DNA of 50,389 nucleotides from Chloroflexota bacterium (GCA_025454515.1 JALOOH010000001.1:1-50389); one strand, 5' to 3'. Numbered from the stretch's first letter, positions 2 through 12,285 are shown. The notes: a model not told the origin generated them from the letters alone. Numbers and translations are program-made.

Positions 2-1258
2 ACGTGGGCCATCCAGCCCGTGGTCTCCGTGCTCGACGCGCAGGGGGACGTCGTGACGACGGACAGCGCCACGATCGTCCTCCTCGACATCGCGCCCGGC
101 TCGCCGCAGGCGGGCGGCCCCGGGACCCTCGGTTGCACGAGCGGCCTGTCGGCTCGCGTCCACCGCGGCGTCGCGCGCTTCGCCGGCTGCTCGATCGGGA
201 CGCCGGGCACGTACTACCAGCTTCGGGCGCGGACCTACTCGACGGGCTCCACGCTGGTCCTCACGGACATCAGCCTGCCGTTCGACATCGGTGGCGGGAA
301 CACGCCGGCGCGCGCCCTGTTCACGACCGAGCCGCTCGGCGCGACACTCGGGGGCGCGCCGCCGACCGCGCCGTCCGGCACGCCGTGGGCCGTCCAGCCG
401 GTCGTCTCGATCCTCGACGCGTCGGGACGGCTCGTGCGGGACGACAGCGAGACGGTCGTCGCGATCGCGATCGACGGCTCGTCGCTCCCGACCACGGGTC
501 GACTCGACTGCGCGGGCGGCACGACCGTGCAGGTCCTCGGCGGCGTGGCCGCCTTCACCGGCTGCCAGATCGCCGGCGCCGCCGGCGGCTACGTGCTGCG
601 TGCGACCGCCCGGGCCCCGGGCGGGGCGCTCACGTCCGACCTGAGCCTGCCGTTCACGATCACCGCGGCGACATCGAGCCTCGAGCTGTCCCCCTCGACG
701 CTCACCGTGGGACCGGGCGGCTCCGTCACGCTCACCGCGACGCTCGCCGGCACGGGGAACGCGAACCAGCCGATCGCCTTCGAGCGCGATGGACCCGACG
801 ACGCCGGCTGGGTGACGATCGGGACGTCGCCGACGGACGGCTCCGGGCAAGCGACGTTCTCCACGACGGTCCCGTACACGTCGGGATTCCGGGCGGTCTT
901 CGCCGGCAGCGGCTCGCTGGCGGCGGCGACGAGCGCGCCCGACATGGTCGCGGTCGCCGCGCGCGTGACGCTCGCCCCCGGCACCGCGTCGGTGAAGAAG
1001 GGGACCACCATCCGTTACGTCGCCGCGGTCGCGCCGGTCCCGCTCGGGGCGACCGTGGTCCAGTTCCACGTGTGGCGGTACGTCTCCGGCTCCTGGGCCC
1101 ACGTCACGCAGCGGTCCGCGCGCGTCGCCGCGAACGGGACCGCGACGCTGTCGTGGACGTGGGCGACGGCCGGCCGCTGGCGGATCGCCGTCATCGCCCC
1201 CACGACCGCGTACTCCACGCAGGGGCGGTCGCGGGTGATCCCCATCACGGTCAGGTAG
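2..1258 (+). CDS. Secreted Ig-like/Big-like repeat protein, 5'-truncated by the window edge; paralog of 1371..3197
   Basis: The frame is open from the window edge (TWAIQPVVSVLD... is already inside a repeat unit). Codon position 3 is G/C-rich, and the stop is TAG at 1256-1258. It has a repeated ~125-aa module with an invariant C...GC pair (..EPLGA..G..PWAVQPVV.ILD.SG..V..DS.T.V...G.L.C.GGT.V.V.GG.A.F.GC.I...G.Y.L.A...SLPF.I). The C-terminal ~200 aa align with the C-terminus of the next gene. Confidence 0.8.
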   Translation, partial: TWAIQPVVSVLDAQGDVVTTDSATIVLLDIAPGSPQAGGPGTLGCTSGLSARVHRGVARFAGCSIGTPGTYYQLRARTYSTGSTLVLTDISLPFDIGGGNTPARALFTTEPLGATLGGAPPTAPSGTPWAVQPVVSILDASGRLVRDDSETVVAIAIDGSSLPTTGRLDCAGGTTVQVLGGVAAFTGCQIAGAAGGYVLRATARAPGGALTSDLSLPFTITAATSSLELSPSTLTVGPGGSVTLTATLAGTGNANQPIAFERDGPDDAGWVTIGTSPTDGSGQATFSTTVPYTSGFRAVFAGSGSLAAATSAPDMVAVAARVTLAPGTASVKKGTTIRYVAAVAPVPLGATVVQFHVWRYVSGSWAHVTQRSARVAANGTATLSWTWATAGRWRIAVIAPTTAYSTQGRSRVIPITVR

Positions 1259-1370
1259 CGCGAGGGGACGCCGTTCCGCTCGGGGCGGCGAGCCTGTATC
1301 CTCTCGCGGGACCTCATTCCAGCACCCGGGCCGGGACGCGTCCGCCGGCGCCACCTTCGAGGAGGAGAGA

Positions 1371-3197
1371 ATGTCCGATCCCGTCCGCACATCGCATCGG
1401 GCGCTCCGGCGGGTGGTCGCCGTCGCGCTCGGAGGAGCGGTCCTCGCGTCGGCGTTCGCCTTCGGGCCGGTCGCCGCGTTCGGGGGCGACCCGTACGTCA
1501 TGTACACGTCCCAGCCGCTCGGCGCGACCGCGTGGAACGCCCCGACCGGCCAGGCCGGCGTCGCATGGTCGACCCAGCCCGCGGTCACGATCGTCGGCGA
1601 CGTGGACCCTTCGTACGACTACCAGGCCACGCTGTCGGTCTCGCCCGACTCGCCGTATGGCAACCTCTCCTGCTTCGGCGGGACGACCGTCGACATGCTC
1701 GGCGGCTCGGCGCGCTGGTCGGGCTGCTCGATCGACACCCCCGGCCAGGGCTTCACGCTCACGGCGACTGTGTTCGGCACGACGGCCATGGGGGTGGTGC
1801 TCCCGCCGATGCAGGCCGTGAGCTTCGCCTTCAACATCTCCGGCGGCGGGCCCACGCCGGGCGCCCAGACGCTCCAGTTCACCACCCAGCCGCTCGGTGC
1901 CAACCTCGGCAGCGCGCGACCGGTCGCCCAGGCCGGCCGCGCCTGGTCGATCCAGCCCGTGGTCGCGCTCGTCGACCAGAACGGCCGCCCGGTGAACAAC
2001 AGCTCCACCGTCGTGCAGCTGTCGATCACCACCGGCACGCCCCAGTCGGGTGGGCCCGGTCGGCTCACCTGCAGCGGCGGGACCGCCGTCACGCTCCAGA
2101 ACGGGTTCGCGTACTTCACGGGGTGCTCGATCGACACCCCCGGCACCGCGTACCAGCTGACCGCCTCGACGGTGAGCTTCGGCTCGACCCAGGTCCTCTA
2201 CGACATCAGCCTGCCGTTCGACATCAGCGGCGGCAACTACGCCACGCAGATCCGGTTCAGCACGCAGCCGCTCGGCGCGGTCCAGGGCGGCACGGTCCCG
2301 TCCGGGACGACCGGCACCCCGTGGTCGATCCAGCCGAGCGTGGCGCTCTACAACTCGTCCGGCAAGATCGTCTCGACCGACTACACGTCGCTCGTCACGC
2401 TCTCCCTCGACCCCGCCGGACCGGCGGGGCAGCTCTACTGCGCCACCGGGACGTCGGTCCAGGTGACCGGCGGCATCGCGTACTTCCAGGGCTGCCAGAT
2501 CGTGGGGACGGGCAACGGATTCCGCCTGCTCGCCCGCGCGCAGACCTCGACCGGCAACATCGGCCCGACGTACAGCCTCCCGTTCAACATCGTCGCCGCC
2601 CCGTCCGGCCTCAGCCTCGAGGCGTCCGCCTACGAGGTCGCGCCCGGGACGACGATGACGTTCACCGCGACACTGTCGGGTTCGGGCGCCGGTGGCCAGA
2701 CGATCATCTTCGAGGGCACGAACGCCAACTACCCCTCCTGGACGCAGTTCGGCACCGCCGTGACGAACTCCGCCGGCGTCGCGACGCTCACCCCGGCCCA
2801 GGGGATCAACTACACGGCGACGGTCCGGGCTCGCTTCGCGGGCAGCGGCACCCTCGCGCCGGCGACGAGCACGTCTGACGTCATCGGCGTCTTCGCCCAG
2901 CTGACGATCTCGCCCGGCGGCACGAACAACGTGAAGAAGGGCAGCGCCGTCACCTACACCGCGACCCTGAAGCCGAACCCCGGGCTGGGCCAGAAGGTCC
3001 AGTTCCTCATCTACCAGTACGTGAACGGGAAGTGGGTCTACAACAACCAGCGGACCTACTTCACGACCTCCAGCTCCCAGGTGAAGCTCACCTGGAAGTG
3101 GTCCACGGCGGGCAAGTGGTACGTCCGCGCGTACGCGCCGGCGAACGTGTACTACACCGACGGCTACTCGCCGACGTCGGTCGTCAACGTGAAGTAG
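1371..3197 (+). CDS. Secreted Ig-like/Big-like repeat protein (3 Cys-pair modules plus 2 C-terminal Ig-like domains)
   Basis: ATG is preceded by GAGGAGGAGAGA. The N-terminal signal peptide is RRVVAVALGGAVLASAFAFGPVAAFG. Three ~125-aa modules share (T/S)TQPLGA...W(S)(I/T)QP.V...C.GGT.V....G.A.F.GC.ID(T)PG..Y.L.A...(S)LPF(D/N)I, followed by a beta-rich tail. A 24-nt stretch is identical to gene 1 (266..289 vs 2202..2225). Confidence 0.85.
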   Translation: MSDPVRTSHRALRRVVAVALGGAVLASAFAFGPVAAFGGDPYVMYTSQPLGATAWNAPTGQAGVAWSTQPAVTIVGDVDPSYDYQATLSVSPDSPYGNLSCFGGTTVDMLGGSARWSGCSIDTPGQGFTLTATVFGTTAMGVVLPPMQAVSFAFNISGGGPTPGAQTLQFTTQPLGANLGSARPVAQAGRAWSIQPVVALVDQNGRPVNNSSTVVQLSITTGTPQSGGPGRLTCSGGTAVTLQNGFAYFTGCSIDTPGTAYQLTASTVSFGSTQVLYDISLPFDISGGNYATQIRFSTQPLGAVQGGTVPSGTTGTPWSIQPSVALYNSSGKIVSTDYTSLVTLSLDPAGPAGQLYCATGTSVQVTGGIAYFQGCQIVGTGNGFRLLARAQTSTGNIGPTYSLPFNIVAAPSGLSLEASAYEVAPGTTMTFTATLSGSGAGGQTIIFEGTNANYPSWTQFGTAVTNSAGVATLTPAQGINYTATVRARFAGSGTLAPATSTSDVIGVFAQLTISPGGTNNVKKGSAVTYTATLKPNPGLGQKVQFLIYQYVNGKWVYNNQRTYFTTSSSQVKLTWKWSTAGKWYVRAYAPANVYYTDGYSPTSVVNVK

Positions 3198-3257
3198 CAC
3201 GCGCGCGGGCCGGCCGGCGAGCCCGCCGGCCGCCGCGTCCGTCGGACGCACCGGATC

Positions 3258-3291
3258 CGCAGGGGCGGGGCCGCGAGGCCCCGCCCCTGCG
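3258..3291. terminator. Stem-loop between convergent genes (putative bidirectional terminator)
   Basis: Perfect 15-bp inverted repeat CGCAGGGGCGGGGCC-gcga-GGCCCCGCCCCTGCG between the stops of 1371..3197 (+) and 3321..4664 (-). There is no U-tract. Confidence 0.55.
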
Positions 3292-3320
3292 GCCGTCCCG
3301 GGCCCGCCCGCGCCGGATCG

Positions 3321-4664
3321 TCAGGCGGCGCCGAACAGGGTCGCCCCGACGAGGATCACGGACAGGCTCGCGACGAGCGCCGTCACGGTCCAGCCGATCG
3401 CGCCCAGAAGCCGGCCGTTCGCGAGGTCGCCCATGATCCTGCGGTCCCGCGCGAGGAGCATGACGAAGACGAGGATGAACGGAAGCAGGATCCCGTTGAG
3501 GACCTGCGCGAGGAACATCACGGTGATGAGCGGGAGCCCGGGGATGAGGACGAACACCGCGGAGAAGCCGATGACGAAGGCGAGGATCCCGTAGAACGCC
3601 GGCGCCTCGCGCCACCGGTGGTCCACCCCCGATTCCCAGCCGAACGCCTCCGTCGCCGTGTACGCGCTCGAGAGCGGGACGACGCCGAGGCCCAGCAGTG
3701 AGGCGGCGAGCAGCCCGAGGCCGAAGATGAGCACGGCCGCCTCGCCGGCGAACGGCCCGAGCGCCTCGGCGGCCTGCCCGGCGTCCGTGATGTTCGTGAT
3801 CCCGTTCGCCCACAGCGTCGCGGCGCAGGCAACCACGATGAACGCCGCGACGACGTTCGTGATGAGCGTCCCGATGCCCACGTCCACTCGCTCGGCGGTG
3901 AGCTCCTCCGGGCCCAGGCGCTTGTCCACCACGTACGCCTGGATGAACGCCTGGCCCCACGGGGTGATCGTCGTGCCCACGACACCGACGACGGCGAGCC
4001 AGTAGGCGGGCGAGGACTCGAGCTGCGGGACGACGAGAGAGCGGACCGCGGTGGACCAGTCGGGGTGCGCGAGGTACGCGGCGACCGCGTACGCGACCGA
4101 GATCGCGACGCCGACCGCGACGAAGAAGTACTGGACCTTGCCGTAGCTGCCGCGACTGATGAGCAGGACGACCGCGATCGCGGCGAGGATCGTCGCGACC
4201 GGCAGCGGGACGCCGAACAGGCCGAGCGCCGTCCCGATCCCGGCGAACTCGCTGATGACCGAGCCCTGGTTCGCGACGAGCATGAGGACCGCCGCGAACG
4301 CCGCCCAGCGGACGCCGAACCGTTCCCGCACGAGCCCCGTCAGGCCCTGGCCGGTCGCGAGCCCCAGCCGCGCCCCCACCTCCTGCGTGAAGAAGAGCGC
4401 GATCTGGCTCGCCAGGAGCACCCAGAGCAGCGCGTAGCCGAACCGCGCGCCGGCGAGGGAGTACGTCGTGATCCCGCCTGCGTCGTTGTCCGCGAAGCCG
4501 GCGACGATGCCCGGGCCGAGGACGGCGAGCGACGCGGCGAACCGCAGTCGCCAGCGCGGGACCGCGGCGGGGCGCCGGACCGCGACGCGCCGGCGTCGGC
4601 GCCGGCCGACCGCCGCGGGAGCGGCGGTCTCGACGACCTCCGCCGCCTCCGGGCGCGACGTCAC
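3321..4664 (-). CDS. NRAMP/SLC11-family divalent cation transporter with non-canonical metal-site motifs (NRMT-like, possible Mg2+ transporter)
   Basis: About 11-12 hydrophobic helices. The TM1 region LGPGIVAGFADNDAGGITT aligns to the NRAMP signature LGPxxxxxxxYxDPGN, and the TM6 region VVGTTITPWGQ aligns to GAxxMPH. The GTG start overlaps the upstream gene's stop (GTGA at 4661-4664). Confidence 0.8.
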   Translation of the reverse strand: MTSRPEAAEVVETAAPAAVGRRRRRRVAVRRPAAVPRWRLRFAASLAVLGPGIVAGFADNDAGGITTYSLAGARFGYALLWVLLASQIALFFTQEVGARLGLATGQGLTGLVRERFGVRWAAFAAVLMLVANQGSVISEFAGIGTALGLFGVPLPVATILAAIAVVLLISRGSYGKVQYFFVAVGVAISVAYAVAAYLAHPDWSTAVRSLVVPQLESSPAYWLAVVGVVGTTITPWGQAFIQAYVVDKRLGPEELTAERVDVGIGTLITNVVAAFIVVACAATLWANGITNITDAGQAAEALGPFAGEAAVLIFGLGLLAASLLGLGVVPLSSAYTATEAFGWESGVDHRWREAPAFYGILAFVIGFSAVFVLIPGLPLITVMFLAQVLNGILLPFILVFVMLLARDRRIMGDLANGRLLGAIGWTVTALVASLSVILVGATLFGAA

Positions 4665-5932
4665 CGGGCCGCCTCGCTGCGCGCGAACAGCTTGGGGATC
4701 CGCTTCTTCCAGGCTGTCGGCAGCACGGTGTCGATCGCGTCATCGACCGTCACGATCCCCTGGAGGACGCCGTCGGCGTCCACGACCGGCACCGCGAGCA
4801 GGTTGTACCGGGCGACGACGTGCGCGACCTCCTCCTGGTCCGCGAGGACGTCCACGGCCACCGGCTCGTCGTGCATGACCTCGCGGATCGGCGCCTCGGG
4901 CCGCGCGACGATGAGGTCCCGGAGCGAGAGGACGCCCACGAGCCGCTCGGCGTCGTCGGTGACGTAGACGTAGTAGATCGTCTCCGCCTCGGGCTCGAGC
5001 TCGCGCAGCCGGTCGATGGTCTGGGCCGCTGTCAGGGTGTCCGCGACCGCGATGTACTCGGTCGTCATGATCCCGCCCGCGGAGTCCTCTGGGTACCCGA
5101 GGAGCTCGCGGACCTCCGCCTCCTCCTCGTCCTCCATGAGCGCGAGGATCTCCTCGCGGCTCTCGTCCGAGAGGTCGGCCACGAGATCCGCGGCGTCGTC
5201 CGGGCTCATCTCCTCGAGGACGTCGGCCGCCCGCTCGGGCTCGAGGTCTTCGATGACGTCGACCTGCGCCTCGGGCTCCATCTCCTCGATGGCGTCCGCG
5301 ACCGCCTCGTCGTCGAGGGTGGCGAGGACGCCCGCCCGGTCGCGCGGCGTGAGCTGCTCCAGGATCGTGGCGAGGTCCGCGGGGTGAAGCTCCGCGAGGC
5401 CCTTGTGCGGCACCTTGAGACGGACGCCGGCGATGGTGGACTCGACCGGGTCGACGTCCTCCCAGTCGATGTACTTCTCCTCGATCGGCAGGCGGAGGTT
5501 GCGGGCGACCGTGCGGAAGGGGCCCTCGATGCCGAAGCGGCGGAGCAGGCCCGACGCGCCGACGTCCACGGCGACGAGCCGGAGCGAGCCGTCCACCTCG
5601 TCGAGCCGGATGTCGTTCACCCGGACGACCTTCCGACCGTCGATGTCCACGATCTGCTTGTCGAGGAGGTCGGCCTTGAGGAGGATCTCGTTCTGGCGCT
5701 GCCGGAACTTGCCGATGTCGATCGTCGCGGTGCGCAGGCGCGCGCCGCCCTCGTCCAGGCTGGCGACCGATGCCCAGGGCAGGAAGATCTCGCGCCGGTC
5801 CGTCCTGACGACGAGTCCGGTCACGGGCGGGTAGGCGTCGCCGATCGCCACGATCAGGTCGGCGACGGTCCCGATCGACTCGCCGTTCCGGTCGAGGACC
5901 GGGCGGCCGATGGCCCTGGACAGGTAGATCAT
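4661..5932 (-). CDS. Soluble PRC-barrel + MgtE N-domain + CBS-pair protein (MgtE cytoplasmic sensor module without the membrane pore)
   Basis: The N-terminus has two PRC-barrel-like segments (GRPVLDRNGESIGTVADLIV; DKQIVDIDGRKVVRVNDIRL). An acidic helical MgtE_N-like region follows (LHPADLATILEQLTPRDRAGVLATLDDEAVADAIEEMEPE...DAADLVADL), then a CBS pair (GGIMTTEYIAV...VTDDAERLVGVLSLRDLI...VVDADGVLQGIVTVDDAID). No TM segment follows. The ATG is preceded by GAGGTGG. Confidence 0.85.
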   Translation of the reverse strand: MIYLSRAIGRPVLDRNGESIGTVADLIVAIGDAYPPVTGLVVRTDRREIFLPWASVASLDEGGARLRTATIDIGKFRQRQNEILLKADLLDKQIVDIDGRKVVRVNDIRLDEVDGSLRLVAVDVGASGLLRRFGIEGPFRTVARNLRLPIEEKYIDWEDVDPVESTIAGVRLKVPHKGLAELHPADLATILEQLTPRDRAGVLATLDDEAVADAIEEMEPEAQVDVIEDLEPERAADVLEEMSPDDAADLVADLSDESREEILALMEDEEEAEVRELLGYPEDSAGGIMTTEYIAVADTLTAAQTIDRLRELEPEAETIYYVYVTDDAERLVGVLSLRDLIVARPEAPIREVMHDEPVAVDVLADQEEVAHVVARYNLLAVPVVDADGVLQGIVTVDDAIDTVLPTAWKKRIPKLFARSEAAR

Positions 5933-6134
5933 GTGCCACCTCGCGGGCGGGTCCGCCGCCCGGCGCGAGGAGGCGCGGCGCAGCGCGCGCCGCGTCGGCT
6001 CAGAGGGCGGTACGGACCTCGCGGGAGCTCCCGGCGCACCGTGCGCCGGGGGGTCTGGGTCCGGTCTCCACTGGGGGAGGGTTCCTCCGATGCGGACATG
6101 GCGGATCGGCCCGGCGGGGGCGCGGTCCGAACCA

Positions 6135-8462: not shown

Positions 8463-8491
8463 TTGACAGCCCCGACCCCGGGCGCTATAAG
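8463..8491 (+). promoter_or_regulatory. Near-consensus promoter TTGACA-N17-TATAAG
   Basis: TTGACA at 8463-8468, a 17-nt spacer, and TATAAG at 8486-8491, about 80 nt upstream of the GTG at 8571. It is unusually close to consensus for this GC-rich sequence. Confidence 0.6.
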
Positions 8492-8570
8492 GGGATGCTC
8501 CCCTTCCGCGATCCCGCGCGCGCCGGAACGGCGGCGCGCCTGCCGCCCTCCCCGAAAGGACCCAGCCTCC

Positions 8571-9428
8571 GTGACCTTCCCCGACCTCGACGCCCCGGCG
8601 TCCGCACCGTCGACATCGCGCGTCCGCCGGCAGCTCACCGACCTCGCCATCTCCCAGGCCTCCCAGGCGCGCTGGGCCGACGCCGCCGAGACGAATCGGA
8701 AGATCCTCGAGCTCGGACCGGACGCCGAGGCGCACAACCGGCTCGCGAAGGCCCTCTGGGAGCTCGGCGAGCTCCGGGCCGCGCGCGAGCAGTACCAGGC
8801 GTCGCTGGCGATGGACCCCACGAACCGGATCGCCGAGCGCAACATCGACCGGCTGCGGGTCCTTCTCGTCGAGGCGGGTGACCGCACCGTGCCCGCCCTC
8901 GAGGGCAGCAAGGCGCCCGTGACCATCTTCGTCGAGGAGACCGGCAAGACCGGCTTCGCCTTCCTGACCGACCTGGCGGACCCGAAGAAGCTCGCCCAGG
9001 TGAACCCCGGGGACTTCGTCGAGCTGACGCCCGAGGCGAACCGGCTCATCGCGTGGAGCAACGGCGTCCGCATCGGCGTCGTGGAACCCCGCGTCGCCGC
9101 GCGCCTCCTCAAGCTCATGGCGAACGGCAACAAGTACGCCGCCGGCGTCACGTCCCTCGGCGCCCAGGACGTGCGGATCATCATCCGGGAGGTCTTCCAG
9201 GATCCCCAGAACTACGGGAAGGTGTCGTTCCCGACCGCCGCCAAGTCGGTGGACCTCCGCCCGTACACGAAGGGCACGCTCGTTCGCGAGGACGAGGAGC
9301 TCGAGGAGGACCTGGAGGACGACGAGGAGGACGAGGAGATCGAGGACCTCGAGCGCGTCATCCCGGCCGAGGTCACCGGCGACGAGGCCTTCGTCGAGGA
9401 GCCCGACGAGCTCGTCGAGGAGCCGTAG
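8571..9428 (+). CDS. TPR-like protein with a beta-rich middle domain and a strongly acidic C-terminal tail
   Basis: GTG at 8571 follows GAAAGGA. The longer ORF start at 8463 would be the -35 box itself. TPR-like helices are present (ARWADAAETNRKILELGPDAEAHNRLAKALWELGELRAAREQYQASLAMDPTN). The tail reads REDEELEEDLEDDEEDEEIEDLERVIPAEVTGDEAFVEEPDELVEEP. Confidence 0.75.
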   Translation: MTFPDLDAPASAPSTSRVRRQLTDLAISQASQARWADAAETNRKILELGPDAEAHNRLAKALWELGELRAAREQYQASLAMDPTNRIAERNIDRLRVLLVEAGDRTVPALEGSKAPVTIFVEETGKTGFAFLTDLADPKKLAQVNPGDFVELTPEANRLIAWSNGVRIGVVEPRVAARLLKLMANGNKYAAGVTSLGAQDVRIIIREVFQDPQNYGKVSFPTAAKSVDLRPYTKGTLVREDEELEEDLEDDEEDEEIEDLERVIPAEVTGDEAFVEEPDELVEEP

Positions 9429-9434
9429 GGCTCG

Positions 9435-12263
9435 GTGAGCCCGCGGGACCTGCCTCTGCGCGGGGACGCGATCGCGACCCTCCCGGTCTTCGAGAGGCTC
9501 GCGCCGCGTCCCGACCCGCGCGAGGTGGCGGCGCGGATCGACGCCGCGTCCGGGACCGGCGACGTCGTCGTCGACCTCCACGGGCGGGGCGGATGGGTGG
9601 CGCGCGCGGCCGTCGCGCGCCAGCGCCGGGCCGTGACGGTCGAGTCGATGCCGCTCACGCGGCTCCTCGCCGAGGTCGTCCTCCGGCCGCCGGACATCCG
9701 CCATCTCGACGCCGCGTTCCAGGCGATCGCCGCCGCGCCGCGCGGGCAGTCGAGCCTCCGGGTCTCGCTCTCCGAGCTGTTCGCGAGCCGGTGCGCCACG
9801 TGCGGGCGGACGGTCGTCGTCGAGGAGCTGACGTGGGCCGCGGGAGCTGACGGGGCCGCGCGGCCCGTGCGCAAGACCTACCGGTGCTCGACGTGCCGCG
9901 CGCAGCAGGGAGGCCCGGAGCTGCGACAGGCGCCGGTGGACCCGGCCGACGTGGAACGGGCGCTCGCCGACGTGGACGCGGCGACCGCCCGGCGGGAGGT
10001 GCACGACCGGTTCCCGCTCCTCGACGGCCGCGACACCCTCGCCGACGACCTCACCGAGCTCCAGACGCCGCGGCAGCTCGTCTACCTTCACGCGATCCTC
10101 CAGCGGATCGAGATCGACCTGCGCGCGCCGCAGGTCGAGGCCGCGCTCCGGCTCGCGCTCCTCGAGGCGATCCTGCCGGCGAGCCGCCTGGCCGCGACGC
10201 AGGGCCGGAGCGCCACCCTGCGCATCGCGAACGCGCGCGCGAAGCCGGCTCTCCCGGCCGAGTGGCGCGAGCGGAACCCGTGGGTCGCCTTCGAGGCCGG
10301 CTACCGCGCGGTGCGCGCCTTCATCCAGGGGCTCGAGGCGGATCCGCTCGGCTCCGTCCAGGCGCGGACGTCGGAGGACATCCTGTCGCTCGGCGAGGGA
10401 TCGACGAGCGCCGTCGTCCGGCTGGGGTCGCCGGCAGGCTTCCGTGGGCTCGCGGACGACGCGTCCGTCGTGCGCTCCACCGACCTGCGGCGGCGGATCC
10501 GGCTCATCGTCGGCCAGCCGCCGCTCCGCTGGAGCCAGGACCGGCTGTCGCTCGCGTACTACCTCACCGCCTGGGTCCTCGGCCGCGACGCCGCCGCGTC
10601 GCTCCCGCTCGAGCCCCTCTTCGGGGCGCCGGTCCGCCCGTCGTGGTCGTGGCAGTCGGCGGCCCTCCGGCGCTCCCTGGCCGCCGTCGCGCCACTCGCC
10701 GCGGCCGATGCGCACGCGCTGATCCTCCTCGAGCCCGACAGCGGCGCCGAGGCGCTCGTCGCCTCGGCGCTCGGAGGCGTGGCCGCGGGCTACCGGCTCG
10801 TGGCCGCGCGGCTCCCGGACGTGGGCGAGAGCGGGCCCGGATGGGTCGAGCTCGCTGCCCCGGGCGTCCCGGTCTCGTCGGGGACGCGGTCCCGCGCGAC
10901 ACGGGCACTGCCGCCGCTCCCCGGTGCGCCCCACGAGCCCGAGTCCGCGCGCGCGGCTCGCGCGGCCCGCGCGGAGCCCGAACGGATCGAGCGAGGCCCG
11001 TTCTCGGCCTCGGAGGCTGCCCGCACGATCACGGAGACGGCGGTGTCCGTCCTCCAGGCGCGAGGGGAGCCGGCGCGTGAGGACCGCCTGCTCGGGGAGA
11101 TCCTGCTCGGCCTCGACAGGACGGGCCAGCTCCGCCGGTTCGTGTCGAGCGCGCCGGAGATCGGGATCGACGACGAGCCGCCGCCGACGCCACCCTCCGA
11201 GCCGGCCGACGCGGGCGACGGGCGCGTGCGCCGCGGCGGTGCTGCCCGCAGGCCCGCCGGGCACGACGGCCAGGGCGGCGGCGGCGCGGAGGCGGCCGGT
11301 CGGCCGGGCGCCGACACCGTCGCCGATGCCCGTCCCACGGCGCCCGTGACGTCCGCGAGCGGGGGCGCAGGCGCCGCGGATCGCGTGGAGGTGCTCCTCG
11401 GCCTCATCCGCGACGAGCTCCAGCGGCCCACCAACCGGCGACTGGCGGAGGTGGAGCCGGGCCGCTGGTGGCTGGCCATGCCGGAGGACCAGGACGCATG
11501 CGCCGTCCCGCTCTCCGACCGCGTCGAGTGGGCGGTCTTCAGCCTCCTCGCGACGGCAAGCCGGGTCTCCGAGGCCGCGTTCCGCGACCGGATCGCCGCC
11601 CTGTTCACGGGCCCGGACGAGCCCGACGAGGCGTTCGTCCGCGCGTGCCTGGAGAGCTACCGTGGGCCGGCGAGCACGGCGGACGTGCTCGTGCCGTTCG
11701 AGGACCTCACGCGCAGGTCCGAGGAGCACGCCCGGACGATCGCGACCCTGGTCGAGCTGGGGCACCGGCTCGGGATGCGCGCGTGGATCTCCCGCCGCGA
11801 GCAGAGCCGCCGGCTGGGCGGGCACAAGCTCGCGGAGTGGCTCGACGAGCGCGAGCTCGGCGCCTACCTCCCGCTCATCGGCCGTGGGCCGACGGACGAC
11901 CTCGAGATGGTGGACGTCATGTGGTACGTCCGCCAGCGCGCGACCTTCCTCTTCGAGGTCGAGTGGACCGCGATGATCGGGGAGACGGTCCTCCGACGCC
12001 ACGCACGGATCCCGACGACCGACCAGGTCGTCCGCTTCCTCGTGATCGCACCGGAGCGGACGGAGCTCCTCCGCGTGAAGATCGACCGCTCCCCGCTCCT
12101 GCGGCGGGCGTTCGAGCAGGGCAACTGGCACATCCTGAAATGGGACCACCTGCGCGAGTTCGCCGCCGGCGACCGGGTCTCGCTCGAGGAGCTCGAGCAG
12201 TTCCTGGGGCTGGACCCGGCGGCCGAGCATGGCGGCGAGCAGATGCCGCTGTTCGGGTCATGA
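9435..12263 (+). CDS. 942-aa multidomain protein: degenerate Zn-ribbon adenine-methylase-like N-terminal half (COG1743/DUF1156-like), a disordered linker, and a PD-(D/E)xK-like C-terminal domain
   Basis: GTG lies 6 nt after the TPR gene stop, and the frame is GC3-saturated. VVVDLHGRGGWVARAAVARQRRAVTVE resembles MTase motif I. There is a CATCG...CSTC zinc ribbon. IVGQPPLRWSQDRLSLAYYLTAW sits in the DPPY-motif position. The C-terminus carries MVDVMWY...FLFEVEWT...FLVIAPE. Confidence 0.7.
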   Translation: MSPRDLPLRGDAIATLPVFERLAPRPDPREVAARIDAASGTGDVVVDLHGRGGWVARAAVARQRRAVTVESMPLTRLLAEVVLRPPDIRHLDAAFQAIAAAPRGQSSLRVSLSELFASRCATCGRTVVVEELTWAAGADGAARPVRKTYRCSTCRAQQGGPELRQAPVDPADVERALADVDAATARREVHDRFPLLDGRDTLADDLTELQTPRQLVYLHAILQRIEIDLRAPQVEAALRLALLEAILPASRLAATQGRSATLRIANARAKPALPAEWRERNPWVAFEAGYRAVRAFIQGLEADPLGSVQARTSEDILSLGEGSTSAVVRLGSPAGFRGLADDASVVRSTDLRRRIRLIVGQPPLRWSQDRLSLAYYLTAWVLGRDAAASLPLEPLFGAPVRPSWSWQSAALRRSLAAVAPLAAADAHALILLEPDSGAEALVASALGGVAAGYRLVAARLPDVGESGPGWVELAAPGVPVSSGTRSRATRALPPLPGAPHEPESARAARAARAEPERIERGPFSASEAARTITETAVSVLQARGEPAREDRLLGEILLGLDRTGQLRRFVSSAPEIGIDDEPPPTPPSEPADAGDGRVRRGGAARRPAGHDGQGGGGAEAAGRPGADTVADARPTAPVTSASGGAGAADRVEVLLGLIRDELQRPTNRRLAEVEPGRWWLAMPEDQDACAVPLSDRVEWAVFSLLATASRVSEAAFRDRIAALFTGPDEPDEAFVRACLESYRGPASTADVLVPFEDLTRRSEEHARTIATLVELGHRLGMRAWISRREQSRRLGGHKLAEWLDERELGAYLPLIGRGPTDDLEMVDVMWYVRQRATFLFEVEWTAMIGETVLRRHARIPTTDQVVRFLVIAPERTELLRVKIDRSPLLRRAFEQGNWHILKWDHLREFAAGDRVSLEELEQFLGLDPAAEHGGEQMPLFGS

Positions 12264-12285
12264 CCCGGGCCGGCACGGAGGGACG

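Follow-up and report, generated by a model that had tools for sequence, protein, structure and literature searches.

A candidate domesticated methylase-nuclease descendant, encoded beside a conserved TPR protein, in Limnocylindria of the Chloroflexota

Does a protein assembled from methylase and nuclease parts, with an altered methylase signature, still take part in defence, or has it become an ordinary chromosomal gene? This question is raised by a 50-kb stretch of DNA of 74% G+C from a Chloroflexota bacterium (GCA_025454515.1, JALOOH010000001.1:1-50389; hereafter the window), in which two open reading frames (ORFs), ORF1 and ORF2, lie 6 nt apart behind a near-consensus promoter. For both proteins, the nearest homologues are found in metagenome-assembled genomes that bear the label Chloroflexota or Candidatus Limnocylindria/Limnocylindrales. 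A first-pass annotation, made from the sequence alone, had described a two-gene cassette whose second product is a restriction-modification-derived protein with an inactivated methylase and a nuclease-like C-terminus, and had offered a defence role and a housekeeping role side by side; both ORFs and the promoter are present as it had described them (Table 1). The explanation favoured here, to which we give slightly better than an even chance, is that ORF2 is a domesticated methylase-nuclease descendant, i.e., a non-methylating, DNA-binding chromosome-maintenance factor rather than a component of mobile defence.

Direct searches with window ORF2 itself return little: there is no Pfam match at E<=1, so that the protein falls below the gathering score of PF01555 (N6_N4_Mtase), no NCBIfam match and nothing in a single-sequence search of the PDB; PglXI and DUF1156 go unmatched in PADLOC, Pfam and NCBIfam alike, and PADLOC yields weak MTase_II matches only, over residues 34-99 (E 0.0027). 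The profile of the ORF2 family pairs residues 19-74 with residues 218-275 of M.RsrI, which hold motifs X and I (E 0.18), and this bears out the motif-I-like segment with an altered glycine loop of the first-pass annotation. The AlphaFold2 (AF2) model, built on 66 homologues and confident for residues 13-478 and 650-932, exhibits a class-I (Rossmann-like) methyltransferase fold over residues 13-478 (predicted local distance difference test, pLDDT, >85), in which the strand bearing motif I (44-50) is followed by a helix and by a strand (65-70) ending in the invariant E70. Among viral models, the best Foldseek match of ORF2 is the N4-cytosine DNA methyltransferase of a Pandoravirus (E 5e-6, probability 1.0), and an adenine methyltransferase from Megaviridae is also returned; against the PDB, the top 50 matches are nearly all class-I methyltransferases, including Dam and CcrM, all with E>=0.035 and none significant, and their number leaves no place for matches to the C-terminal domain. 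The profile and structure searches that had been proposed as a check of the methylase assignment thus recover a class-I methyltransferase fold.

The ancestry of this fold is best seen through relatives of ORF2. A profile search of 1.8 billion representatives retrieved 1679 of them, including a distant group of ~760-890 aa that has no long linker, and a search from one distant homologue, P0293, reached proteins with precomputed N6_N4_Mtase matches as well as P0433, which possesses canonical VMDPFSGSGVT and FTDPPY motifs and shares with ORF2 both the zinc ribbon and the C-terminal domain. P0433 matches N6_N4_Mtase (7e-16, 59.2 bits, over motifs X-I only), the PADLOC models of the BREX methylase PglXI (5.6e-38) and of type II methylases (MTase_II, 2e-35 over residues 2-462), and two DUF1156 models (DUF1156_MTase at 1.4e-9, the second at 7e-11). 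The N6_N4_Mtase cutoff of 26.7 bits is also passed, over motifs X-I only, by the relatives P0396 (40.6 bits), P0424 (38.9 bits) and P0416 (36.6 bits), and PglXI is matched by P0433, P0396 and P0390 only, not by window ORF2. Aligned with hhalign over the full length of ORF2, a Limnocylindria ORF2 profile and P0433 share 739 columns (probability 99.4%, E 3.7e-21). Descent of ORF2 from a zinc-ribbon N6/N4 amino-methyltransferase of the restriction-modification type is supported by these profile comparisons and by the model. The DUF1156/COG1743 methylases with which the first-pass annotation had compared ORF2 were the right neighbourhood, since P0433 matches PglXI and, weakly, DUF1156 models and a 2026 survey places PglXI/BrxXI (BREX type 3) and the DUF1156 methylases in one architectural group, with a target-recognition domain after core strand 2 (PMC12839542); membership itself does not hold for ORF2, which has no Pfam or NCBIfam match. 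Eight cluster representatives of the family (50% identity), i.e., P0264, P0268, P0271, P0273, P0276, P0338, P0361 and P0376, are frameshifted or out of frame, their in-frame segments being interrupted by stretches rich in Arg, Pro and Ala; such artefacts of gene calling or assembly are typical of high-G+C DNA and inflate family counts, and the eight were left out of the reading.

The catalytic signature, by contrast with that of P0433, is degenerate. Eight residues (D47, R51, G52, W54, E70, Q361, P363 and R365) are invariant among 66 family members, and in the motif I loop, D47-L-H-G-R51-G52-G53-W54, the invariant R51 sits at the first Gly of FxGxG. The GQPPL sequence that had been assigned to the place of DPPY does lie on the motif IV strand (residues 355-360 of the model) and aligns with FTDPPY of P0433, and G360-Q361-P-P363-L364 fails the (D/N/S)PP(Y/F/W) pattern; position 364, where the catalytic aromatic residue is expected, is occupied by L, Q, M, A or V across the 66 sequences. 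In the distant clade motif I reads DPF-C-R-T-D-V-V, its glycine loop gone, and motif IV reads (S/T/A/Q/E)-x-PP-x. Because the first Gly of motif I is replaced by Arg and motif IV is without its aromatic residue, ORF2 is very probably a dead methylase, and the earlier description of a restriction-modification-derived module with a degenerate methylase is upheld by the homology to canonical P0433 and by motif loss across the clade. That ORF2 might still be an active methyltransferase with non-canonical motifs is most improbable: E70, the acid of motif II, and D47 are invariant, G50-R-G52-G53 still resembles G-x-G and Q361 could mimic the Asn/Asp of motif IV, but these points are set against the invariant Arg at the first Gly of FxGxG, an aromatic position that varies freely and the loss of the whole glycine loop in the distant clade (DPFCRTDVV).

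The replacement residues are themselves strictly conserved, and this suggests that the old cofactor and base pocket has taken on a new use and is not simply decaying. Pseudo-methyltransferases are known from eukaryotes, where METTL14 (with EPPL for DPPW) and DNMT3L act as partners of an active paralogue. ORF2 resembles them in having kept its fold, potentially as a scaffold for nucleic acid or for a partner, and its Q-P-P-(L/x) recalls EPPL; it differs in that the lineages are unrelated and no active paralogue is seen near ORF2.

The overall plan of ORF2 follows that of PglXI and of the DUF1156 'BR' methyltransferases of DUF499 systems: it combines a core of the N6_N4_Mtase type with an insert after core strand 2 (strand 65-70, insert 73-325, core resuming at 326), and putative helical DNA-binding modules follow the core towards the C-terminus. 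It departs from this plan in having no DUF1156 N-terminal domain, in its degenerate motifs I and IV and in an extra C-terminal NmeDI_C domain, and furthermore in the absence of ATPase, helicase and PglZ partners and in being vertically inherited rather than patchy. The region of P0433 that is homologous to the insert matches positions 336-604 of the PglXI model. The zinc ribbon within the insert, predicted earlier as a CxxC...CxxC element, has four cysteines that are invariant in two family alignments, distant homologues and canonical P0433 included, although its two CxxC pairs are spaced by 27 residues and not by the 25 first given.

Downstream of the core, a ~150-aa linker rich in Ala, Gly, Pro and Arg had been described. 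Residues 480-648 are indeed predicted to be disordered and are 57% A/G/P/R, but residues 525-570 are conserved, with R543, G544, E545, P546 and A547 invariant, and only residues 571-648 are variable; it is this latter part that is missing from the ~760-890-aa distant homologues. The conserved element is possibly one of the helix-turn-helix-like modules of PglXI-type methylases (PMC12839542), and from the model the region that follows, residues 650-745, would adopt a winged-helix-like arrangement. Identity to mid-distance homologues amounts to 52-69% in every folded domain (58% in the insert) vs 11% in the linker.

It could be argued that such a protein acts on RNA, e.g., in the binding or processing of rRNA or tRNA, both folds having been reused as RNA-binding or RNase modules. 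Many of the Foldseek matches in the PDB are rRNA or tRNA methyltransferases (RsmH, RsmG, Fmu, Trm11, Bud23), P0433 weakly matches RsmD and Trm models, one database source labels a relative an 'RNA-binding Zn-ribbon protein', and RNA housekeeping would suit a lineage-core gene. However, the RNA methyltransferase matches all have E>0.03 and reflect the shared Rossmann-type core only, whereas the significant matches are to DNA methyltransferases (Pandoravirus at 5e-6; PglXI and MTase_II at 1e-35 to 1e-38; M.RsrI), and the C-terminal family takes its name from a restriction enzyme that acts on DNA. An RNA role is for these reasons considered quite unlikely.

The C-terminus, where a nuclease-core pattern had been read, carries a family assignment and has a predicted topology that resembles such a core. 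The precomputed assignment of PF27126 (NmeDI_C) covers P0001, the cluster to which window ORF2 belongs, and most homologues; the family is found at E<=1e-5 on P0005, which is 83% identical to ORF2, and on P0433, and is reported as 'faint' on the distant P0390. In a further family member, P0254, the 351-position PADLOC REase_II model is matched at positions 178-296. A literature search found no paper mentioning PF27126 and none of relevance on Limnocylindria. R.NmeDI, on whose C-terminal part the family is built, is a type II restriction endonuclease of 351 aa (PMC2095814). The likeness of ORF2 to this enzyme is confined to the C-terminal domain, by precomputed assignment; R.NmeDI differs in being a stand-alone restriction endonuclease with a separate C5 methylase, and NmeDI_C may be its catalytic or its DNA-binding domain.

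In the AF2 model the core of this domain runs alpha-beta-beta-beta-alpha-beta (helix 758-778; strands 782-785, 828-832 and 836-843; a helix; strand 865-871; a helix), which is the order of PD-(D/E)xK nucleases, with D827 just before strand 2 and E841-V-E843 on strand 3, a Glu thus occupying the usual Lys position. D827 is present in 65 of the 66 members, and E841, E843 and K882 are conserved. The PD-(D/E)xK site of BamHI likewise has the form D...E-x-E, with Glu in the usual Lys position, and the same acidic pattern in ORF2 is compatible with an active nuclease; this is a comparison of motifs only, there being no detectable sequence or structural match between BamHI and ORF2. A weak MmcB-like match was returned by Foldseek (probability 0.94, but E 0.26). 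Collectively, sequence and model support a restriction-endonuclease-like C-terminal domain and make nuclease activity plausible. Type IIG/IIC enzymes (MmeI, the BcgI family) are single chains composed of an active amino-methyltransferase, a target-recognition region and an N-terminal nuclease. ORF2 similarly unites an amino-methyltransferase, a target-recognition region and a PD-(D/E)xK-type domain in one polypeptide, but its nuclease-like domain is C-terminal and its methylase signature is lost; by analogy, the canonical relatives of the P0433 type may work like type IIG/IIC enzymes.

Whether such a protein belongs to defence can be judged from its distribution. In a scan of one genome per species, at least 146 genomes were found to contain an ORF2 relative, and 80 of the loci were fetched. 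Each of these holds a single ORF2 copy, including the locus on a complete 3.1-Mb chromosome, and the gene order GGDEF, membrane protein, ORF1, ORF2, DUF885 is conserved. All annotated genes of the window are metabolic or housekeeping genes (Nramp, MgtE/CBS, GGDEF cyclase, PlsY, phytoene synthase, acetyl-CoA synthetase, MoaA, GreA, TrkA), and the distant degenerate ORF2 homologues, from genomes of 57-65% G+C, have housekeeping neighbours as well, one such cluster being labelled Anaerolineae. Restriction-modification specificity domains usually diversify, but the recognition insert of ORF2, with the identity given above, does not. The single syntenic copies, the housekeeping neighbours and the conserved recognition region thus support ORF2 as a vertically inherited chromosomal gene and not a mobile defence module.

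That partner genes are missing, as claimed by the first-pass annotation, was confirmed: no BREX, DUF499 or DISARM gene lies within +/-10 kb of ORF1-ORF2, and BrxC/DUF499 ATPase, helicase-nuclease and PglZ partners are not among the ORF2 neighbours. PADLOC gives no system-level match, and a defence island is absent from the 50 kb. The hypothesis of a defence island was rejected on the housekeeping context and the syntenic distribution, which is the opposite of the patchy occurrence that had been suggested as a check; of the two roles offered, housekeeping is therefore favoured by the distribution and defence is unlikely. A specific form of the latter is an immune function that ORF2 would have retained, by itself or together with ORF1, while becoming fixed in the lineage, for example as a type IV-like modification-dependent restriction enzyme whose degenerate pocket reads a foreign modified base and whose NmeDI_C domain cuts. 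Ancestry among defence methylases (PglXI and type II models), the retained D/E/E triad and the invariant, remodelled R51, W54 and Q361, which would suit a reader function, are in its favour, and a type IV enzyme needs no partner methylase, consistent with the missing partner genes. We nonetheless hold it to be unlikely, given the one copy in each fetched locus, its synteny with housekeeping genes, the presence of the family in at least 146 species, a recognition region that remains 58% identical instead of diversifying, the lack of any defence island or PADLOC system and the housekeeping surroundings of even the distant homologues.

The partner in the proposed cassette, ORF1, is more constrained than ORF2: its homologues begin with MTFP, are nearly all 285 aa long and retain ~80% identity across the lineage at constant length, vs ~55% for ORF2. 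The TPR-like helices and beta-rich middle domain that had been recognised in it are both borne out. The former score 27.8 bits on TPR_2 (cutoff 27), match TPR proteins in PDB profile searches with E-values as low as 1e-39 and superpose on CTPR (consensus TPR) proteins with a root-mean-square deviation of 0.9 A over 80 residues in Foldseek. The beta-rich domain is almost invariant in sequence across the bacterial class and evidently important; it has no match in Pfam (33 members, E<=10) or in a domain-only profile search of the PDB, and Foldseek with the ORF1 model gave TPR proteins only, none for this domain. A HIRAN-like fold, considered from a sequence pattern (G-D-x-V-x-L ... I-G-x-V ... 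A-x-x-L), found no support from any tool and was dropped.

The C-terminal tail of ORF1 is acidic, as had been stated, although Asp and Glu make up about half of it (27 of the last 55 residues, with 3 K/R) and not most. Its sequence is conserved, with E272, A273 and F274 invariant. Residues 265-285 (window 9363..9428) hold an invariant linear motif, composed of P265, T269, D-E-A-F at 271-274, E277 and D279, then PDEL. The motif looks like a docking peptide more than generic acidic filler. EEVD peptides bind TPR domains, and by analogy the TPR domain of ORF1 itself could be the receptor of the motif. The suggestion that the tail is a DNA mimic or autoinhibitor is speculation.

The association of the two genes is regular in orientation and loose in spacing. 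In all 72 species in which both genes occur in the fetched locus, ORF1 lies upstream of ORF2, on the same strand and within 5 kb, with a gap of <300 bp in 43 species, 0.3-2 kb in 17 and >=2 kb in 12. The large gaps hold opposite-strand MoxR-DUF58-DUF4129 operons or a DinB_2 gene, and because of these intervening genes ORF1 and ORF2 must be transcribed separately there; furthermore, no ORF1 homologue is found within 8 kb of the distant ORF2 relatives. The 'two-gene cassette' is consequently not obligate. Adjacency alone is no proof of a functional link, since the flanking genes are equally syntenic, and a functional partnership, which is unproven, would be optional across the lineage. The insertion of the MoxR (AAA_3)-DUF58-DUF4129 operon marks one Limnocylindria subclade (L007-L011, L013-L016, L018, L021 and L075, at ~2000-6000 in locus coordinates), its MoxR gene and ORF2 being divergently oriented. 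The distant ORF2 homologue P0424 likewise has a DUF58 gene directly adjoining it (L083:10339-11673), and this proximity could be a coincidence or a recurrent association.

A serious alternative, to be placed somewhat short of an even chance, is that the two genes have no functional relation and lie side by side because gene order is conserved where rearrangement is slow, the promoter serving mainly ORF1. It is consistent with flanks (the membrane protein and DUF885 genes) that are just as syntenic, with the opposite-strand genes of 12 species and the intermediate gaps of 17 more, with the very different constraint on the two proteins and with distant ORF2 homologues that have no ORF1 nearby. 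It accounts less readily for the invariable order and strand within 5 kb and the short gap in 43 species, for the 6-nt gap of the window clade, which suggests coupled translation, and for the pairing of an acidic tail with a basic N-terminal half of ORF2 (pI 9.1), which is compatible with binding.

The promoter is equally relevant to this point. The pattern TTGACR-N16-18-TABAAR has one match in the 50-kb window and none in 100 shuffles (0/100), and the near-consensus TTGACA-N17-TATAAG site noted at the outset is mirrored in 58 of 69 related loci by TTGAC(A/G)-N~17-TA(C/G/T)AA(A/G), ~100-135 nt upstream of the ORF1 start and often with a TG extension. The leader is 70-110 nt long and G+C-rich, and in an alignment of 22 loci the stretch between the -10 element and the Shine-Dalgarno-like CGAAAGGAC is not conserved. 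Since the site recurs in 58 of the 69 loci and the Shine-Dalgarno sequence is invariant, the promoter looks real and conserved across the lineage, unlike a chance match. A generic sigma-70 scan of the window does not call it, because the last base of its -10 element is G and not T. The lineage consensus upstream of ORF1 (L001-L079) is TTGACG-N17-(TG)CTA(C/G)AAA, with a -10 element ending in A or G rather than T, so that standard sigma-70 scanners overlook such promoters. A conserved RNA element in the 5' untranslated region of ORF1 was also considered and rejected: an Rfam scan of the 50-kb window gave no RNA family, and only the promoter and the Shine-Dalgarno sequence are conserved among the 22 loci. 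The GTG of ORF2 is preceded by a GAGGAG stretch, and the 6-nt spacing together with the single conserved promoter makes co-transcription of ORF1 and ORF2 likely in the window clade.

Table 1. Coordinates of the ORF1-ORF2 region and its predicted elements within the window
Feature	Position	Strand	Basis
Promoter: -35 TTGACA (8463-8468), 17-nt spacer, -10 TATAAG (8486-8491)	8463..8491	+	Sequence read directly
Shine-Dalgarno-like CGAAAGGAC before the ORF1 GTG	8553..8561	+	GAAAGGA (nearly) invariant in 22-locus alignment
ORF1, 285 aa: TPR, beta-rich domain, acidic tail	8571..9428	+	GTG start backed by homologues
ORF1 TPR helices, aa 15-101	8613..8873	+	TPR_2; AF2 pLDDT >85; Foldseek and PDB profile
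ORF1 beta-rich middle domain, aa 114-208 (~95 aa)	8910..9194	+	AF2 strands, pLDDT 45-64
ORF1 acidic tail, aa 231-285, ..DEAF..EEPDEL motif	9261..9428	+	Composition, conservation, predicted disorder (AF2)
ORF2, 942 aa: degenerate methylase and restriction-endonuclease-like protein	9435..12263	+	Starts 6 nt after ORF1 stop
ORF2 methylase core, N-part, aa 13-72: motif X/I (DLHGRGGW), motif II (E70)	9471..9650	+	M.RsrI alignment, AF2
ORF2 target-recognition-type insert, aa 73-325 (~250 residues), after core strand 2	9651..10409	+	AF2 topology
ORF2 Cys4 zinc ribbon, C120, C123, C151, C154	9792..9896	+	Invariant; beta hairpins aa 126-149 (AF2)
ORF2 methylase core, C-part, aa 326-478	10410..10868	+	AF2; Foldseek class-I/DNA methyltransferase matches span region
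ORF2 degenerate motif IV, L-I-V-G-Q-P-P-L-R, aa 357-365	10503..10529	+	Aligns with FTDPPY of P0433
ORF2 conserved helical element, aa 525-570 (RGEPAR...GLDR.GQLRR)	11007..11144	+	69% identity, low pLDDT
ORF2 variable disordered linker, aa 571-648	11145..11378	+	pLDDT ~30, 11% identity
ORF2 winged-helix-like region (predicted), aa 650-745	11382..11669	+	AF2 helix, beta hairpin (aa 670-680), more helices; 68% identity
ORF2 NmeDI_C / PD-(D/E)xK-like domain, aa 755-932, D827, E841, E843, K882	11697..12230	+	Precomputed PF27126, AF2, conservation

The end of ORF2 is overlapped by 35 nt by the longest form of the DUF885 ORF (ATG at 12229; window 12229..12283). The Pfam match of DUF885 begins at its residue 57, and an in-frame ATG at 12283, 19 nt past the ORF2 stop, is probably the true start. 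One database entry, P0015 (1524 aa), represents the ORF2 and DUF885 genes fused.

If the favoured explanation, that of a domesticated chromosome-maintenance factor, is followed through, the ancestor of ORF2 would have belonged, as an N6/N4 amino-methyltransferase, to the architectural group of PglXI (BREX type 3) and DUF1156. Its zinc-ribbon target-recognition region would have been inserted behind core strand 2, helical DNA-binding modules would have lain towards the C-terminus, and an NmeDI_C domain would have been added. The clade has lost the catalytic signature, whereas all the folded DNA-recognition scaffolds and the D...E-x-E triad have been kept under strong purifying selection. The present-day protein would no longer methylate; it would bind one conserved DNA target or structure through its pseudo-methylase cleft, zinc ribbon and helical modules, and its C-terminal domain would cut or nick DNA, or at least bind metal and DNA, in the service of chromosome maintenance, be it repair, recombination or surveillance. 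In this genome ORF2 would be co-transcribed from the ORF1 promoter and probably translationally coupled to ORF1, which we picture as an abundant TPR adaptor whose acidic tail may dock on ORF2 or restrain it.

Several points weigh against this explanation. As window ORF2 has no direct Pfam or NCBIfam match, and no Foldseek match in the PDB at E<1e-3, its methylase assignment is transitive and profile-based. The invariant R51, W54 and Q361 suggest that the pocket binds something, so that 'dead' may mean 'repurposed'. The C-terminal domain has an NmeDI_C assignment and the weak MmcB-like match, but its profile finds no match in the PDB, i.e., no solved relative by sequence; several distant family members moreover carry other residues in place of the E841/E843 pair (V/Q and V/R among them), and because of this replacement nuclease activity is not a constant of the family and could be absent in ORF2. 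ORF1 is on the same strand in 72 of 72 species, but separated from ORF2 in 29 of these and not found within 8 kb of the distant homologues. The preference for DNA over RNA as target is drawn from ancestry only, and the biochemical function of ORF2 is unproven.

A more elaborate version, unlikely as a whole, is that a BREX-type-3-like methylase-nuclease was converted into a chromosomal sensor-nuclease in the Limnocylindria ancestor, possibly earlier in the Chloroflexota, with a pocket (R51, W54, Q361) that would read damage, a mismatch or a modification, and with the acidic, DNA-like tail of ORF1, itself co-transcribed and strongly expressed, restraining the nuclease.

Two further parts of the window can be described here. 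A carotenoid cluster on the minus strand (14680..~20200), downstream of DUF885 and PlsY, comprises phytoene synthase, an amino-oxidase-type desaturase, a UbiA/glycosyltransferase and lycopene cyclase (cf. L085:15280-20543). Two adjacent ORFs at 2..3197, with weak Big_3_5 Ig-like matches below the Pfam cutoff, are probably cell-surface proteins and unrelated to ORF1 and ORF2.

The locus represents a clear, datable case of a defence-type enzyme that was fixed as a vertical chromosomal gene after losing its catalytic methylase motifs, set in a large uncultured soil class, the Limnocylindria, of which almost no molecular biology is known. ORF1, with its conserved strong promoter and ~80% identity, is evidently an important protein of this class. 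Should ORF2 turn out to be merely a structural DNA-binding relic, the gain would be a modest improvement in annotation. If ORF2 acts as a nuclease in repair or surveillance, a factor of genome maintenance specific to the lineage would be gained, together with a bacterial counterpart to the eukaryotic pseudo-methyltransferases, and if the sensor-nuclease is indeed restrained by the tail of ORF1, the two proteins would constitute a lineage-specific pair for genome maintenance that has not been described before and is made from parts of defence systems.

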